DNA from: Escherichia phage AV108
Strand: one strand, 5' to 3'
Sequence record: OR352938.1
DNA: 64,000 nucleotides
Shown one piece after another: positions 5,899 to 60,094 of this stretch; positions within the stretch are counted from its first letter, which is position 1, and every line of letters starts with the position of its first letter. The notes below the pieces were generated by a model. It saw only the letters and a program-made list of their open reading frames with translations, was not told where the DNA came from and made no database searches. Made by a program: the position numbers and the translations under genes.

Positions 5899-6192
5899 TT
5901 ATAATGCTTTATATGCGTATTTCATAAATTTGTCTGCCACTTCATTGGCATGTTCAGATTCTACGCCTGATTCGAGAACAATAGCTAGGTCGGTTTCGTC
6001 ATTCCCGCCGTACCAATGATTTGATGTTCGATTTTTTTCAATTGGAAATTGGTCACTTTTATCTGTGCGACAAAATACATCTAAATGCTCGTCGATGTAA
6101 AAGATCCAATCTTCATAAAGAATAACGGTATTAGCAAGATTTTTATTGCCTTCAACGAAAGGTTCGGCTACAAACAAATTAGTATGTTCCAT
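5899..6192 (-). CDS. small protein, divergent paralog family member F
   Basis: ORF track 5899..6249; likely start ATG 6190-6192 (MEHTNLF) with GAGGAA RBS; motif SNHW and AIVLESG. Confidence 0.45.
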   Translation of the reverse strand: MEHTNLFVAEPFVEGNKNLANTVILYEDWIFYIDEHLDVFCRTDKSDQFPIEKNRTSNHWYGGNDETDLAIVLESGVESEHANEVADKFMKYAYKAL

Positions 6193-6208
6193 AGTATTTT
6201 CCTCAAAA

Positions 6209-6400
6209 TTATACAGCTTCGTAAACTTCCCAATGTCCAACACCAGCACGCTTAACGAAAAGGTTTTCTTTGATGTTATTCATAAACGTCTGGATGGATT
6301 TAATGCGATTTGAAGGTTTCCAGTCTTCGTTGGCATTGCGTCGATACATCATAACATTACCAGTTCGCTTATATTCAGCAACCATTTTAAGACCACACAT
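6209..6400 (-). CDS. hypothetical protein
   Basis: 63-aa ORF with GAGGA RBS at the correct spacing. Confidence 0.45.
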   Translation of the reverse strand: MCGLKMVAEYKRTGNVMMYRRNANEDWKPSNRIKSIQTFMNNIKENLFVKRAGVGHWEVYEAV

Positions 6401-6457
6401 AATATTATCCTCAATTTGTGGGAGAGTATTACCCCTCCCAATGATTGTTATGTTATA

Positions 6458-6778
6458 TCACACAAAATGGCGTGTCAATGCTTCTTTTGCGGTTCCGCTA
6501 AGACTTTCGATCTCTCCTGGCATAACATCAACCGCCAGAACTTCTACAACATCCTCGGACCCTAACCAGTGAGTATGACCTTTGTAGAACTTAATAACCA
6601 GACTACCTTCCTCGTCCCATTTAACGCTATCGCTAGCCCACCACACATCACCGTCGATAAAGTTGATGTAAAGCACACTACGCCACATTGAATTAATTAC
6701 TTTCAATACTGCGCCTTTCATCTCTTCCACGGTATGGTCTTCCATTTTGAAGACCTCACCTACCTGAACTTTTGCCAT
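6458..6778 (-). CDS. small protein, paralog family member D
   Basis: GAGAGGTG RBS; motifs HTHW and VLAVDV. Confidence 0.5.
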   Translation of the reverse strand: MAKVQVGEVFKMEDHTVEEMKGAVLKVINSMWRSVLYINFIDGDVWWASDSVKWDEEGSLVIKFYKGHTHWLGSEDVVEVLAVDVMPGEIESLSGTAKEALTRHFV

Positions 6779-6795
6779 TTAGTCACCTCTCTTTA

Positions 6796-6975
6796 TTACA
6801 TAACAATCACGCCAGCCGTTGAAAGTTGATGTTTCAACTGAGCATTTTCTGCTACCGTCAAATCAATGATTTCTTGTGACGCTGCAATCATATAGCCATT
6901 GGTGATATTGTTTTGCATCAGTTCAATGGTTTCTTCGTTGTAGCGGATTTTAGCGATGATTTCGTTGAAGTTCAT
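6796..6975 (-). CDS. small protein (59 aa), below the ORF-track cutoff
   Basis: ATG 6973-6975 with AGGAGAATCAATT leader, TAA 6796-6798; MNFNEIIAKIRYNEETIELMQ... Confidence 0.4.
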   Translation of the reverse strand: MNFNEIIAKIRYNEETIELMQNNITNGYMIAASQEIIDLTVAENAQLKHQLSTAGVIVM

Positions 6976-7009
6976 AATTGATTCTCCTAGTTCGTTTCGG
7001 TATGTGTGT

Positions 7010-7038
7010 AGTATAGGGGATCACCGATCCCCTGTCAA
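7010..7038 (-). promoter_or_regulatory. sigma70-type early promoter
   Basis: tgtcaa 7033-7038, TATACT-like -10 7010-7015, spacer palindrome GGGGATCGGTGATCCCC. Confidence 0.55.
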
Positions 7039-7050
7039 CAACTTTTTGAA

Positions 7051-7527
7051 TTATTTTTCTTGATGCTCGCGATCGTACTTTTCGAAATAAAATTCTACTG
7101 GCTGGTCGTGGATTGACAGCAAGCCAAAGCGTTTAGCCGCTCGCAATCCCATATTGCGCTGAATGTACTTCTGGAAGTTCTCGCGTATACACTTACGCCA
7201 GGATTCTAAGCCCATGCAGCTTTTATAAAGATTGCATTGCACACATGCCGGATTCATGTTATCAAGTATATCATGCTCCGGTTTATGCATTCCTACAACC
7301 TTATACTTCCACGATCCATCATCATTACGGGCAATTCGTCCATTTTCATCATAGACAACCTTTGAGCGTCGTAATACTGGTTTGATATGGTCTGCGTGCC
7401 AGCGATCCCCTAGTTCCTCGCCACAATAGGCACAACGTCCACCGTATTTCATTTTCAGGATCTGACGTTGCTCTTTCTTTGACAATTTTTTAGGTTTAGG
7501 GGCTTTCGCCCCTTCATTATCACACAT
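7051..7527 (-). CDS. HNH endonuclease-domain protein
   Basis: CxxC ... HADHIKP ... CVQCN zinc-finger HNH pattern; starts immediately after the ligase stop. Confidence 0.6.
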   Translation of the reverse strand: MCDNEGAKAPKPKKLSKKEQRQILKMKYGGRCAYCGEELGDRWHADHIKPVLRRSKVVYDENGRIARNDDGSWKYKVVGMHKPEHDILDNMNPACVQCNLYKSCMGLESWRKCIRENFQKYIQRNMGLRAAKRFGLLSIHDQPVEFYFEKYDREHQEK

Positions 7528-9016
7528 CGAATACCTCTTTTACTGTATTTGCAGCGGTCTTGTCGTAGCGAATACGTTTGATGATCGGGAGAAATAAAGA
7601 GAACTCCGGTTCATCTTCTTTACGTGATTTGCTGCGAATGTACCCGTTGCATGTCATCTCGATGACTTTTCCAATCAGGTTATGACGGTCAGCCCATAAC
7701 ATTTCTCGGTCAAGTTCATTTCGACGATCGAACGGAATTACACGTTCGATACCATCATCACCTTTTTCGGTTGTAGTGTCGGTTAATCCCGATCCGGTGT
7801 TAGTCATCATTCGTCCACACGCACTACGGACAGTAAAACCGCCTACCTTATTGGGGTCTTTACTATGCGGATATACATCAACAATTTCCGCGTCGAAGTC
7901 AATCACTTCTTTAAATTTAACCTGATCTTTACTACGGCGATCTTCAAATACACCATGTAAATTTTTAAGGATAATACCTTCTAAGCCCATGTTGACATAA
8001 CGATGATATACTTCGCGAGCTTCATCGATATTGTTAACTACAGTGTTTTCGATGATCTGAACACGAGGATCGTTAAGTTCTTCAACAATCTGTTTTAGTT
8101 CTTCAAATCGATCTTTATATTGCTTCGTTGCTTTCTCGTTTCCGTAGTACACATCACGGTCGATAACATCCCAGACAGTGTAAACAATACATTGGGCTTC
8201 TTCTTTTGGAATAGTTCCTTTCAGTGATTTGTTGAGGATACCATTTCCGGTCTGACGGTCTGCAACAACGGATTCTTTCACTGCTTCCGCTACTGGCGTT
8301 AATGGCATTTCCTCTTCTTCAAATATCCATGACAGAGTACCATCATAAACGCTCTCAACGAAGTTCTGCGCTGGTGTTTGCGAAAGGGTAGGCATATATA
8401 CCAATTCACCATCTAGAACAATTCCACGGCCTCGTAGACGCTCTAAAACCGCAAACAAATCATCAAGTCCTTGATAGGTATTACCTGAGCGGGTATAGAT
8501 TGCTAATGTTTCCCCGTCAATATCAGCCATACCACGAGCGCCATCGCTTTTAAGTTGTGCATACGCCGGATACTTGATATTAGCAATAGTCTTATCAGAA
8601 CATGACGATGCAAGGTGACACGGTTGCTGGGGGATCAGTTTCTTCCATACCTTGTTTGCAGTGGTAGCGGAACAACCACATTCCAGATCACGATTCAGGA
8701 CCATCATTGCAACTTTAGCATCATCTTCTGACAAGCAAGTCAGAGTATCGGTAACTAGCTGTAATGCTGCGTTACCAGTTACTTGACGCGTGGCAAGTTT
8801 ATTTTTAAAGACCTGTAATGCACCGGATAAAGACAATACAGACGAATAGCGAGATGGTTTATCGTATTTCTTTACGCCAAACGTAACCTGTTTGCAATAT
8901 GCCAGATAAAAGCATTCTTTCAGTGTTTCATTGCTTGCAGATTCTTTCAGGATCTTTTCTTTCAGCGATGTTTTGTCGGTCGCTGCAAGCTGGTTAATGA
9001 TATTAAGAATTGACAT
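7520..9016 (-). CDS. 30: ATP-dependent DNA ligase
   Basis: collinear with the T4 ligase sequence as recalled (KADGAR active-site region, EGIILKN, C-terminal TVKEVF); ATG at 9014-9016 with GAGGTG RBS, ORF track extends to a GTG at 9022. Confidence 0.9.
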   Translation of the reverse strand: MSILNIINQLAATDKTSLKEKILKESASNETLKECFYLAYCKQVTFGVKKYDKPSRYSSVLSLSGALQVFKNKLATRQVTGNAALQLVTDTLTCLSEDDAKVAMMVLNRDLECGCSATTANKVWKKLIPQQPCHLASSCSDKTIANIKYPAYAQLKSDGARGMADIDGETLAIYTRSGNTYQGLDDLFAVLERLRGRGIVLDGELVYMPTLSQTPAQNFVESVYDGTLSWIFEEEEMPLTPVAEAVKESVVADRQTGNGILNKSLKGTIPKEEAQCIVYTVWDVIDRDVYYGNEKATKQYKDRFEELKQIVEELNDPRVQIIENTVVNNIDEAREVYHRYVNMGLEGIILKNLHGVFEDRRSKDQVKFKEVIDFDAEIVDVYPHSKDPNKVGGFTVRSACGRMMTNTGSGLTDTTTEKGDDGIERVIPFDRRNELDREMLWADRHNLIGKVIEMTCNGYIRSKSRKEDEPEFSLFLPIIKRIRYDKTAANTVKEVFDV

Positions 9017-9482
9017 TTTCACCTCGTTTTGTTAAACGTTCACGAATATCATTGAGGATACTACAAAATTCCGATTCAGTCAATATAGTCTTTAACGGAT
9101 CAGTTCCACCTATGCTATGACGCAATTTCTTATTTCCGGTAGCGAGTAATGCTTTACAAAATTCTGGGTTATTCCGTGCCATCGTAACAAATGCCAGATG
9201 TACCAGTCTGTAATAATGCTCACTCATTCGATGAATAGGGCGACCCTGAAAATATAACATGTGATTCTCAATCTTTTCAGTTCTTCCGGTTCTTTTTGCT
9301 TTGCCACCGTGCATCAAAAAGATTTCTCTTTGTCTCTGAGGGTTCTTAAATCTTAGCCCCTGTAAAAATCCTTCTGTGCTGTTAATATCGCAACCAAATA
9401 GACGGAATGGTCTTTTATTGAAATTACTCAATTCACCCGATGGATAAGGTCCACCCGCATAGATATCAATTTCAGAAGTCAT
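9003..9482 (-). CDS. NADAR (YbiA/DUF1768-like) domain protein
   Basis: by-eye similarity to E. coli YbiA: SNFxxxPF, T.E...Q..KF, LLATG, GG.D...ILT...N.LG segments. Confidence 0.55.
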   Translation of the reverse strand: MTSEIDIYAGGPYPSGELSNFNKRPFRLFGCDINSTEGFLQGLRFKNPQRQREIFLMHGGKAKRTGRTEKIENHMLYFQGRPIHRMSEHYYRLVHLAFVTMARNNPEFCKALLATGNKKLRHSIGGTDPLKTILTESEFCSILNDIRERLTKRGENVNS

Positions 9483-9636
9483 TGAAACTAATCTCGCTAA
9501 TCAGAGAGAACGGATCATAATCGTCATTAGGAATATCGATAGTAATCGAATGAGGGTTTACCCATACACCAAACTGGTCTTCTTCGGTTAATACTTCGGT
9601 ATGGATTTCGTGGATGTTTACATTCATAGTTTTCAT
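9472..9636 (-). CDS. small protein (54 aa), below the ORF-track cutoff
   Basis: ATG 9634-9636 with AAGGAAA RBS; stop overlaps the NADAR start by 11 nt. Confidence 0.35.
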   Translation of the reverse strand: MKTMNVNIHEIHTEVLTEEDQFGVWVNPHSITIDIPNDDYDPFSLISEISFNDF

Positions 9637-9719
9637 AATAAAATTTCCTTAATAATCAATAACTTACAAAATCATATAGTCAAAATATAGGCGGGATTAT
9701 TTCCCGCCGTTTAAAATCA

Positions 9720-10043
9720 TTAACCGTAAACTACCACAATATTCTGTTTGTGTGTTACAGTCCATTTCAGGTCGATCTCTTCTTCCTTCTTAACGCCGTT
9801 AATAACGTCTGGATGAGGAACTTTATTCATCTTGCCATGTGGCAGTAGAACAGTTTTACCCAGCAATTCTTTATCTACAGTCTCGCCAATATCAATAATC
9901 TTACCTACCAGCGGAATCTCACCCATAGTGCGCTTTTGCTCAATAATGATCCCCATAGAGCTTTTTACTTCGGTCCCTGCGCTTTCTGCTTTCGCTTCGA
10001 TAATTACATAATCACCAAGTGCTTTAGGAGTTTTAACGGTCAT
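9720..10043 (-). CDS. 31: GroES-like co-chaperonin
   Basis: 107 aa, GDYVII ... VPHP pattern resembling T4 gp31; position between cd and 30 as in T4; followed by hairpin 9691-9710. Confidence 0.65.
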   Translation of the reverse strand: MTVKTPKALGDYVIIEAKAESAGTEVKSSMGIIIEQKRTMGEIPLVGKIIDIGETVDKELLGKTVLLPHGKMNKVPHPDVINGVKKEEEIDLKWTVTHKQNIVVVYG

Positions 10044-55805: not shown

Positions 55806-56309
55806 TTAAATTAAAGAAAATTTGTAAATCTCTATCAGATCGCCGTTACACGCGTAAACTTCCTCGATCTCATCAAGGATCATGGTCGTCCCTGTCTTGT
55901 ATATGCACTCGCGCTCATCTGCCAACATAGCATACAAAGACAGTCGAGTAGTCGGATTGTCATACTCTTTAGACACCACTCGGTCAATAGCATGTTCGTA
56001 ATAATTCATGCAAGGCTTGGTAGGTTTTATTGCAATAATCTTTCCTGTTGCATAAACATCGGTTGCAAAGTCCTCTGCTGTTGATTGCAGTGGCGTAAAG
56101 CTCATAGGACGCTCTACAACGAAAGAATCACCTACAATTAAGGTATCCAGCTTACGACCTTCTCTTTTGCTCACACCGCGATACAAGGCTTCATGATGCA
56201 CTAACCGTTCAGTCTTTTCGATCAATCCATTAAGGATCGACATATCGATATTTTCTTTAGAGTTCATCACTTCATCAATGATGTTAAGTTCTTCTGGTGT
56301 AAATTGCAT
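55806..56309 (-). CDS. ADP-ribosyltransferase-like protein (ModA/ModB-like R-S-ExE pattern)
   Basis: YRG ... STAED ... DERE spacing fits arginine-specific ADP-ribosyltransferases; position between dda and 56 as for T4 modA/modB. Confidence 0.4.
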   Translation of the reverse strand: MQFTPEELNIIDEVMNSKENIDMSILNGLIEKTERLVHHEALYRGVSKREGRKLDTLIVGDSFVVERPMSFTPLQSTAEDFATDVYATGKIIAIKPTKPCMNYYEHAIDRVVSKEYDNPTTRLSLYAMLADERECIYKTGTTMILDEIEEVYACNGDLIEIYKFSLI

Positions 56310-56378: not shown

Positions 56379-56897
56379 TTAGTAGCCGCGTTCTTGACGG
56401 GCGAAGTTTTCAGCATTTTTCAGATAGTACAGCTTGAAGATATCCTTAGCGGTTAAACCTAAGCCCAGCATTTTAATCAGCACAAAATGCCAGATATCGA
56501 TCAATTCCATCACAATTTCGGTTTTATCGTCATCTGACAGATCAGCAAATTTACGCGCTCGTGCTTCGCCGTGGTTCTTCTTCCACACTTTAGTAATTGC
56601 GCTTGCATCTTTGCCATTTGACATGCCACCCAGGGCAACATAAAGTTCTCGTGTCTCGTCGTCGATTGCGTCATCCCACAACTTCATCCAGTCAAGGATC
56701 TCCCCGCAAGTTTCCAGCTTATCAGGATGCATTACCCACTCAAATTTATCAGCTAGTGCGACCTGTAATCCTTTTTGCATATCTAACATTACTTGCAGCG
56801 GATCTTTACCGCTAGTGATTGCCTCGGAATACGCAATACCAGCTTTAGACATAGTTTCATCATTAACAAGACCAGCACAAGAATTAAATTCACTCAT
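56379..56897 (-). CDS. 56: dCTP pyrophosphatase-like all-alpha NTP pyrophosphohydrolase
   Basis: MazG-like ELIDIWHFVL helix, about 172 aa from ATG 56895-56897 with GAGAGG RBS; position next to 61 as T4 gene 56; ORF track to 56960. Confidence 0.6.
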   Translation of the reverse strand: MSEFNSCAGLVNDETMSKAGIAYSEAITSGKDPLQVMLDMQKGLQVALADKFEWVMHPDKLETCGEILDWMKLWDDAIDDETRELYVALGGMSNGKDASAITKVWKKNHGEARARKFADLSDDDKTEIVMELIDIWHFVLIKMLGLGLTAKDIFKLYYLKNAENFARQERGY

Positions 56898-56907
56898 AAT
56901 AAACCTC

Positions 56908-57471
56908 TCAAATAACATTAAACACTGCAAATTCACCGTGATACTTATACGCATAGTCATTATATACTATTGCGGCGTCTATTTCTAGGTCAAATTGTCC
57001 TATATAGACTTTATTTCCTTCATTGTCCCTTATCTGGGCGACCCATTTACCCGAACGACTATTATAATGCACTCCTTTAAAATTGCTAGTTTTAGTTTGG
57101 TTGTTTCTTCTCATATTTTGGGTATTCTGTTTTTGTGTCGCCTCTCTTAAGTTTGGAGGATCGTTGTTCTCTGGATTCCCGTCAATATGGTCAATGACAG
57201 GTGGGCAATACCCATGCTCTAAGAAGAATACTATTCTATGCACAAGCTCAAAATATTGTTTTCCTTCAAAAGAAAATGAGACTTTTAGGTGTCCGGCTGT
57301 GACTTTAGATACCTTTACTATATCACCAACCTTATAAAACTGGCCTTCTTTCGTCGTTCGGCTTGCTTTGCTGTTTGTTTTATGAATCAATATACCCCTT
57401 TCGTGTCTATATCTTCGACGTATTTCATCCTTTAATTCATCGCTCCATTCTTTGGCTTTCCTTACCCTCAC
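56908..57471 (-). CDS. HNH endonuclease with AP2 DNA-binding domain
   Basis: HNH core VHRIVFFLEHGYCPPVIDHIDGNPENN ... NLREATQKQN; AP2-like FKGVHYNSRSGKWVAQI ... YIGQFD ... AAIVYNDYA. Confidence 0.65.
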   Translation of the reverse strand: MRVRKAKEWSDELKDEIRRRYRHERGILIHKTNSKASRTTKEGQFYKVGDIVKVSKVTAGHLKVSFSFEGKQYFELVHRIVFFLEHGYCPPVIDHIDGNPENNDPPNLREATQKQNTQNMRRNNQTKTSNFKGVHYNSRSGKWVAQIRDNEGNKVYIGQFDLEIDAAIVYNDYAYKYHGEFAVFNVI

Positions 57472-59050: not shown

Positions 59051-59428
59051 TCATAGAATAATCTCTTTCAGTAAGTCAACAATCTGGTCTTTCGTCAGTT
59101 TATCCTGATTCTCTACAATCTTGATAACACAAGCATTAACATCTTTTCGAGTCACGCGGGAGATCGTTTTAATACGATGAAACGGTTCGTAGAAATATAC
59201 TGCTTCATTATAGAGAGCGGATACTTTACGACGCATTTGATCTTTATCTGACAAGAAAACAAGTGCTGTTTTATGACCTTCTACACCCGCCACGTTATAT
59301 AGTTCAGCAACACCCCAGCGACCTTCCGGTTCAATCATTCCGGCGTGTTTACCGTCGATAAAAATAAGAATATCTCCGTTGAATGCGGTTTTGAATGCTA
59401 CATCTTCCGGCGTAATCATATTTTTCAT
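59051..59428 (-). CDS. hypothetical protein
   Basis: 125-aa ORF between 41 and 61. Confidence 0.45.
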   Translation of the reverse strand: MKNMITPEDVAFKTAFNGDILIFIDGKHAGMIEPEGRWGVAELYNVAGVEGHKTALVFLSDKDQMRRKVSALYNEAVYFYEPFHRIKTISRVTRKDVNACVIKIVENQDKLTKDQIVDLLKEIIL

Positions 59429-59458: not shown

Positions 59459-60094
59459 TCAAGCGAATGTAGAAAGCAAATGTTTTGTTTCTTTCAGTTG
59501 TCGTTCAAGATCTTTGCGTTTCTCTTTAAGTTGCATTTTAGCATTATTTCGCTGTTTTTCAACATCTTTATCAATGCTCTTATTCCAGTTATCAATATCA
59601 GAATAAGTTGGCATACCCAATTCTAGACCTAATGCGGTTGGATACAGGGTAACAGTCCATAAACCGCTAATCTTCTTAAATAGGTCTGGGTGTAGTGTAC
59701 TATCTACATCTTCCGGTGTCAACTCTTTTTCTTCTTTCAGTGGTGGGATCTCGTCATATGGTTCCAGTGCATTTACTTTAATATCAGATACCTCATCAAA
59801 GAATCCGCGTACATCCGCAGGAAATACACAAGCAATTTCCCAACCGTGATCACGCAGAGAAGTAATATTTTTCACTCCCCCACCATGTGTGATGATTGAT
59901 GTGACATTGCCATCAAGGTCCACCGAATTTACGAGAAATGGCTTATCGTCTGTCAGATCATTATAAAACTGTGCTTCGGCTGTAGTCATCTCCAGAAACA
60001 GATCTCGGATCGGACGACCATCAGGTGCGTTACCTTCCTTGAGAGTATAAAAGCGACTTACGATCCATTTTGGCGGTAAAGCATTAGCGATCAT
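59459..60094 (-). CDS. hypothetical protein
   Basis: 211-aa ORF with an ITHGGGV motif and a Lys/Glu-rich C-terminal tail. Confidence 0.45.
   Translation of the reverse strand: MIANALPPKWIVSRFYTLKEGNAPDGRPIRDLFLEMTTAEAQFYNDLTDDKPFLVNSVDLDGNVTSIITHGGGVKNITSLRDHGWEIACVFPADVRGFFDEVSDIKVNALEPYDEIPPLKEEKELTPEDVDSTLHPDLFKKISGLWTVTLYPTALGLELGMPTYSDIDNWNKSIDKDVEKQRNNAKMQLKEKRKDLERQLKETKHLLSTFA

Follow-up and report, generated by a model that had tools for sequence, protein, structure and literature searches.

The 64,000-nucleotide stretch of Escherichia phage AV108 DNA analysed here (sequence record OR352938.1; hereafter the window) contains, between genes 31 and 30, an open reading frame (ORF) that raises the question whether this phage encodes a free-standing enzyme of the NADAR superfamily, which would remove ADP-ribose from guanine in DNA and thereby counter host defence by toxins of the DarT type, as had been proposed in a preliminary description of the sequence. 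Judged by its sequence, the gene is the RB49-type (Krischvirus) ortholog of gene 30.3 of phage T4, the product of which is now called AdfN, and it would encode a core-only N-glycosidase of the NADAR fold; it is an already known gene, not a new one. The ORF scan and the annotated relatives agree with the coordinates, the length of 159 amino acids and the placement between genes 31 and 30 that had been given for it:

9003..9482, minus strand: coding sequence of the gp30.3/AdfN ortholog, a predicted phage-type NADAR ADP-ribosylglycohydrolase (ATG-to-stop ORF, 159 amino acids)

The assignment as an ortholog is based on both similarity and gene position. BLASTP aligned residues 3–150 of the window protein with residues 2–152 of T4 AdfN, which corresponds to 151 of the 152 T4 residues, at 38% identity and 54% positives (E = 2e-30), and in both phages 30.3 occupies the interval between genes 30 and 31, within a syntenic replication and repair cluster of the T4 type, which in the window comprises 30, 30.3, 31.-1, 31, 31.1, cd, cd.2, and pseT. 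The window protein shows 100% identity to the gp30.3 that is annotated for phage RB49 (AJ550428). A 5.1-kb region of this locus shares 99.0% identity with Escherichia phage kvi and 98% identity with RB49, Phi1, and approximately 55 further Krischvirus records, and the gene order ligase, 30.3, 31.-1, 31 is repeated in the annotated records of Phi1, G5211, GEC-3S, MIZ6, and kvi.

The T4 protein was described in work published in 2024–2025 as a guanine-specific DNA ADP-ribosylglycohydrolase that overcomes the DarTG1 system, and gp30.3 was renamed AdfN, for anti-DarT factor NADAR (PMC11825919). AdfN is needed for the plating of T4 and T2 on E. coli carrying DarTG1 and, supplied in trans, suffices for the rescue of RB69, whose own AdfN has a 15-residue C-terminal truncation and reduced activity, whereas the thymidine-specific DarTG2 is not countered (PMC11825919). 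In vitro it strips ADP-ribose (ADPr) from DarT1-modified DNA, and it is impaired by the substitutions E36A and K43A and by a truncation of the C-terminus imitating the naturally frameshifted RB69 allele (PMC11825919). Hydrolysis by T4 gp30.3 of guanine-ADPr (G-ADPr), but not of T-ADPr, on DNA in vitro was also reported elsewhere (PMC11125620; also PMC12945103). The latter study further found that G-ADPr on RNA is removed by NADARs of all four families, and phage NADARs are not among the C-ADPr erasers that it lists (PMC12945103). The Methods of PMC11125620 give the T4 gp30.3 construct as “residues 1-208”; the gp30.3 of NC_000866 has 152 amino acids, and 208 amino acids is the length of gp61.2 (AdfA).

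The window protein matched the Pfam family Phage_30_3 (PF08010) over profile positions 2–138 of 138 with 132.5 bits (cutoff 36; E = 1.2e-38) and, among the PHROGs, phrog_652 (E = 2.5e-45). Its likeness to YbiA/DUF1768, which the preliminary description had seen across the whole length of the protein, was less evident when the Pfam NADAR family (PF08719) was searched directly. Here the score of 15.5 bits (E = 0.021; residues 14–120) stayed below the cutoff of 35.1, so that the NADAR link needs evidence from profile-profile or fold comparison. The gathering score of PF08719 is a sufficient, but not a necessary, criterion for membership in the NADAR superfamily; all of 108 diverse family representatives matched PF08010, and 27 of the 108 matched PF08719 at E ≤ 0.01 (best E = 1.2e-6). 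In hhalign comparisons, a profile of 162 family domains aligned with YbiA alone over 133 columns at 95.3% probability (E = 2.3e-8) and with a set of nine canonical NADARs at 97.4% probability (E = 1.1e-11), and profile-profile comparison of a 12-sequence family alignment with seven canonical NADARs yielded 97.2% probability (E = 3.5e-11). YbiA was also the sole PDB sequence reached by a 108-sequence family profile (E = 0.0012); hmmsearch with the 12-sequence profile had found it with no better than E = 0.12. The 108-sequence profile missed 8bau and 8bat, for which fold comparison was required. Two further matches were not used: a match to DltA (E = 3.8e-4), which was spurious and the sole result of a single-protein PDB search, and a weak match to the NCBIfam NADAR anti-phage model (E = 0.023).

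The AlphaFold model of the window protein (predicted local distance difference test, pLDDT, 94) has the alpha+beta fold of YbiA, and its comparison with three NADAR structures gave the following results:

E. coli YbiA (2b3w): score 12.1; 138 residues at 3.0 Å
Phytophthora nicotianae NADAR with ADP-ribose (8bau): score 12.0; 136 residues at 2.9 Å
Geobacter lovleyi NADAR, a DarG1 antitoxin (8bat): score 9.9; 137 residues at 3.7 Å

Profile-profile comparison, the AlphaFold model and the fold comparison together place the window protein firmly in the NADAR superfamily. The resemblance to YbiA thus holds over approximately 135–138 residues at the level of profiles and fold, but not in the direct Pfam comparison; by PF08719 taken alone, the refuting condition named in the preliminary description, the lack of a significant NADAR profile match, would almost have applied. 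Beyond the aligned C-terminus of T4 AdfN the window protein runs on for 9 residues, and its model ends in a helix:

9012..9077, minus strand: C-terminal helix, model residues 136–157 (DSSP on the predicted model)

Whether the predicted enzyme also has the active site of AdfN was assessed by means of residue counts from 161 family representatives, which were taken from a search that covered 1.84 billion proteins and gave 973 clusters at E ≤ 1e-3. Three positions are of particular importance:

9372..9374, minus strand: codon GAA of the catalytic residue Glu37 (corresponding to T4 E36 and YbiA E48; pairwise and profile alignment)
9351..9353, minus strand: codon AGA of Arg44, at the site of the phosphate-contacting Lys (T4 K43, YbiA K55, E. 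coli C7 K95, PnNADAR K50)
9117..9119, minus strand: codon CAT of His122, the phage-NADAR signature in the last strand, which replaces the Glu of the YbiA family and the Asp of DarG1

Position 37, which falls in the alignment column of E48 that is invariant among canonical NADARs, is Glu in 157 of the 161 representatives, and position 122, which is aligned with E125 of YbiA, is His in 159. A His in the last strand is a hallmark of the phage (gp30.3) NADARs (PMC11125620, PMC11543638). The window protein furthermore retains the motif S19-N20-F21 and all of the other near-invariant positions (S19, N20, Q41, R85, G125, T135, and E138).

The one deviation lies at position 44, seven positions past the catalytic Glu, where 147 of the representatives have Lys (91%), 10 have Arg (approximately 6%), and 4 have other residues. 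Arg44 keeps the charge but not the Lys, and the position bears on function rather than on homology. Arg44 occurs in six of six Krischvirus sequences, in which E37, R44, and H122 are invariant, and a relative with 69% identity (P0002), encoded on a metagenomic phage contig, retains both Arg44 and the gene order. Comparison of 30.3 with five other Krischvirus genomes revealed 19 synonymous and 2 non-synonymous codon changes, a pattern according to which the gene is under purifying selection in this genus. Since Arg44 is fixed in Krischvirus and kept in the 69%-identical relative, and in view of the ratio of 19 to 2, the Arg form is kept by selection and is no sign of decay. Arg at this position also recurs in unrelated and otherwise intact members of the family (P0018, P0035, P0095, P0097, P0142, and P0150). 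Residues that convincingly co-vary with Arg44 were not detected among the representatives; a weak trend at position 31 is not shared by the window protein.

By analogy with T4, the window enzyme quite probably removes guanine-N2-ADP-ribose that host toxins of the DarT1 type put on phage DNA. Both the presumed substrate, G-ADPr on DNA, and the anti-DarTG1 role are carried over from T4 by orthology. A DarT1-type toxin of the host would attach ADP-ribose to the guanine N2 of phage DNA, the window enzyme would hydrolyse the bond between ADP-ribose and guanine N2 during infection, and removal of this bond would restore replication and neutralise the abortive-infection defence of the DarTG1 type. 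The earlier proposal of a free-standing phage NADAR that removes G-ADPr and acts in counter-defence against DarT is in this way supported by the orthology with T4 AdfN, the fold, and the residues Glu37 and His122.

Several points weigh against this explanation. T4 AdfN and the window protein share no more than 38% identity, the direct match to the Pfam NADAR family is sub-threshold, and PADLOC models matched neither the window protein nor T4 AdfN. The phosphate-contacting Lys is replaced by Arg44; the equivalent substitution K95R in the NADAR of E. coli C7 kept hydrolysis in vitro, but cells were not rescued from DarT1 (Schuller et al., PMC11543638), and rescue by the K43A variant of T4 AdfN was only partial (PMC11825919). 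In uninfected cells AdfN itself fails to neutralise DarT1, its rescue of non-T-even phages is only partial, and its full action was seen only in T-even infection, from which the authors infer a T-even cofactor (PMC11825919). The published phage panel consisted of T2, T4, T6, RB69, and Bas35-47, without any Krischvirus (PMC11825919), and a search of the literature library found no paper on Krischvirus and DarTG and nothing relevant on RB49 and DarT. According to the NCBI taxonomy, Krischvirus is placed directly under the Straboviridae and outside the Tevenvirinae of T4. Finally, counterparts of the T4 neighbours 30.1, 30.2, and 30.4-30.9, and of rIII, are missing from the 64-kb window.

It is conceivable, if unlikely, that the RB49-type AdfN is naturally re-tuned and, should the exchange at position 44 matter, has another substrate range (e.g., RNA G-ADPr or another DarT1 variant) or depends in another way on the T-even cofactor. 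This idea arises because a lineage outside the Tevenvirinae, in which AdfA and the T4 neighbours are lacking, has Arg44 fixed under purifying selection, and because the same substitution in a DarG1-type enzyme uncouples hydrolysis in vitro from protection in vivo. As a rival explanation it would mean that the fold is the same but the job has shifted: the Arg44 form would prefer a substrate other than DarT1-modified DNA, such as RNA G-ADPr, the product of another ADP-ribosyltransferase of the host, or a soluble immune signal derived from ADP-ribose, and its power against DarTG1 would be weak or absent. An Arg where 91% of the representatives have Lys and the loss of in vivo DarT1 rescue by C7 NADAR K95R with in vitro activity kept (PMC11543638) are in line with such a shift, as are the removal of RNA G-ADPr by all four NADAR families (PMC12945103) and the location of 30.3 in a cluster with genes for the ligase and polynucleotide kinase, plus RNA ligase 1 in kvi and in the 69%-identical relative (L010). 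However, T4 AdfN, the only family member assayed in vivo, is clearly DarTG1-specific (PMC11825919), and the remaining conserved active-site positions are all unchanged. Moreover, the recurrence of Arg in unrelated intact members and the lack of convincing co-variation make it look like a tolerated variant rather than a specificity switch, and the proposal of a soluble signal as substrate is older than the experimental work. A shifted job is on these grounds considered improbable.

A second rival arises from another gene of the window, which had previously been described as ADP-ribosyltransferase-like and had led to the suggestion that ADP-ribose chemistry may run in both directions:

55806..56309, minus strand: ModA/ModB-like ADP-ribosyltransferase, 167 amino acids (profile, motif, and synteny)

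The gene exists and is of the ModA/ModB type. Its product matched PHROG 832 (“RNA polymerase ADP-ribosylase”; E = 1e-20), is 33% identical to T4 ModB (E = 8e-11) and 23% identical to T4 ModA (E = 2e-6), and contains a readable R-S-ExE motif (R44, S70, and E132-x-E134); the gene stands in the T4-like order dda, dda.1, srd, mod. No Pfam family was matched by this protein. It is a single mod-type gene, closer to modB, where T4 has a modA-modB tandem, and tblastn revealed no match to T4 Alt in the 64-kb window. That the two proteins form a phage-internal pair of writer and eraser, the NADAR undoing ADP-ribosylation or RNAylation by the ModB-like transferase, is very unlikely in spite of the presence of both genes in the window. 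The genes are approximately 46 kb apart in separate gene clusters, host proteins are the targets given for ModA and ModB in the T4 record, the published substrate of AdfN is host-made G-ADPr on nucleic acid, and the NADAR activities described in PMC11125620, PMC11543638, and PMC12945103 are all directed at nucleobase-linked ADPr. T4 has Alt, ModA, and ModB in addition to AdfN, and the phenotype of its adfN deletion is explained by DarTG1 alone (PMC11825919). A published test of a NADAR on Arg-ADPr was not found in the literature passages searched. A functional link between the transferase gene and 30.3, and with it a chemistry running in both directions, is unsupported.

The two remaining alternatives are hardly tenable. 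A YbiA-like metabolic N-glycosidase, which would act on intermediates of the riboflavin pathway or on small ribosylated molecules of a similar kind, is most improbable, since the window protein, like the gp30.3-type proteins, has His in place of the last-strand Glu by which the YbiA family is defined (PMC11125620), riboflavin genes were not seen among the neighbours, and the T4 ortholog has a demonstrated role related to defence (PMC11825919). Scarcely credible as well is a decaying or catalytically dead remnant comparable to the frameshifted allele of RB69, which is a natural example of reduced activity (PMC11825919): a catalytic-site residue is indeed changed from K to R, but the protein is full-length with an intact C-terminal helix in the predicted model, keeps the near-invariant positions except position 44, shows the 19 synonymous versus 2 non-synonymous changes within Krischvirus, and retains Arg44 and synteny in the 69%-identical lineage.

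Removal of G-ADPr from DarT1-modified DNA thus being the preferred explanation, the window protein can be compared with the known systems. With T4 AdfN it has in common the homology over the full length, the core-only NADAR fold, the catalytic Glu, the last-strand His, the C-terminal helix, and the location between genes 30 and 31. It differs in having Arg44 instead of Lys43, and its gene directly abuts the ligase gene, as T4 30.1 and 30.2 are absent from the window. Also different are the overlapping upstream ORF 31.-1, which is unrelated to T4 30.4, the absence of an internal 30.3' ORF (none of at least 40 amino acids within 30.3), the position of the phage genus outside the Tevenvirinae, and the lack of an AdfA detected in the window or among the database matches. 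The DarG1 antitoxins (BC4488 family; 8bat and E. coli C7 NADAR) have a catalytic Asp where the window protein has His122, and they carry an N-terminal extension and comprise 219–234 amino acids, compared to 159 amino acids with a core starting at about residue 4 in the window protein (137 residues align with 8bat, which has 219). No darT1 lies beside the window gene, whose neighbours are the ligase gene and a 54-amino-acid ORF, no PADLOC match was obtained, and in uninfected cells T4 AdfN is no substitute for DarG1 (PMC11825919). YbiA (2b3w), the archetype of NADAR/DUF1768, shares only about 18–24% identity with the window protein, in which His122 stands for Glu125 and R44 for K55; it is a host enzyme that gave no in vivo protection against DarT1 in published assays (PMC11125620). 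AdfN(Bas32) and AdfN(Bas60), too, are stand-alone, guanine-ADPr-specific phage NADARs that counter DarTG1, but they were acquired independently, belong to other NADAR clades, and work without phage infection (PMC11825919), whereas the window protein is a member of the T4-type gp30.3 clade.

AdfA (T4 gp61.2) is directed against the same system, DarTG1, but is an unrelated DarT1-binding protein with no apparent enzymatic domain (PMC11825919). Its homologs were found in 487 phage records, all with at least 62% identity, those listed being of T4 or RB69 type, and no match was detected in the 64-kb window. A 211-amino-acid ORF (59459..60094, minus strand) was considered as a diverged AdfA and rejected, with a BLASTP E value of 6.7 and assignment to a different PHROG (phrog_16187); this ORF, noted together with 59051..59428 (minus strand), occupies the interval from primase gene 61 to helicase gene 41, at about the site of the 208-amino-acid AdfA in T4. 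T4 sp, 61.4, and dmd had no match in the window. On the other side of gene 61, a 187-amino-acid ORF (56908..57471, minus strand) that looks like a homing endonuclease (HNH/AP2-like) is situated between the primase gene and a 193-amino-acid ORF (56379..56960), which we take to be a gp56 dCTPase-type gene.

In most of the Krischvirus records examined, 30.3 is labelled “hypothetical protein”. If it is annotated instead as a NADAR of the AdfN type, RB49-like phages are predicted to resist DarTG1-type defence, and the value of the assignment lies mainly in annotation. Some RB49-like phages have been isolated on pathogenic E. coli hosts. The novelty that remains is the lineage-fixed change from Lys to Arg in Krischvirus; should the enzyme indeed be re-tuned, the Arg44 allele would be a ready-made natural probe of the limits on AdfN activity in vivo.

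The immediate surroundings of 30.3 contain the following features:

7520..9022, minus strand: gene 30, T4-type ATP-dependent DNA ligase, 500 amino acids, overlapping at its start with the 3' end of 30.3
9472..9636, minus strand: ORF 31.-1, 54 amino acids; its stop lies 11 nucleotides inside the start of 30.3
9690..9708, minus strand: terminator-like GC-rich hairpin with T-run between gene 31 and 31.-1 (pattern scan)
9720..10043: gp31 co-chaperonin gene, separated from 30.3 by the 54-amino-acid ORF

Gene 30 is 41% identical to T4 gp30 (tblastn, E = 8e-113) and is labelled DNA ligase in kvi and Phi1. Its 3' end overlaps by 8 nucleotides with an ORF of 158 amino acids (7051..7527, minus strand) that matched the Pfam HNH family (E = 5e-6) and carries the label HNH endonuclease in several Krischvirus records. 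ORF 31.-1, which is so named in the RB49 record, corresponds to phrog_15277 (E = 2e-41). It is unrelated to T4 30.4, the occupant of the equivalent position in T4. In the relative with the 69%-identical 30.3, the counterpart of ORF 31.-1 (4847..5011 of L010) has kept position and length at 37% identity (20 of 54 residues), and the motif IPNDDYDP-SLI is common to both. A tie between ORF 31.-1 and the cofactor of AdfN would be pure speculation. At the site of the hairpin the GEC-3S record annotates a terminator; a function as terminator is only suggestive, as the regional count of terminator-like sites is not above the expectation from shuffled sequence. A consensus scan of the coding strand revealed no promoter upstream of 31.-1 and 30.3, the regional promoter counts being at shuffle level, and searches of the window for tRNAs and Rfam families gave no match.

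Outside the phages, two gp30.3-type (PF08010) genes were observed 2.3 kb apart on a 123-kb contig of Candidatus Falkowbacteria (JAAXUA010000004; L011 3089..4199 and 6001..7105), which looks cellular and also contains dnaX and gyrB. This suggests that the His-type “phage” NADAR also occurs outside phage genomes. A toxin-antitoxin pairing on this contig was considered but is not supported, since the downstream ORFs of 133–135 amino acids are mutually unrelated and have no Pfam match. Many gp30.3-type domains reside in longer proteins (P0019, P0069, P0117, P0135, and others), some of which are tandem duplications with the catalytic Glu lost in the second copy (P0069 and P0117). The fusion partners of gp30.3-type domains include DUF6939 (8 of 108), NT5C 5'-nucleotidase, ASCH, histidine phosphatase, thymidine kinase, and metallophosphoesterases.

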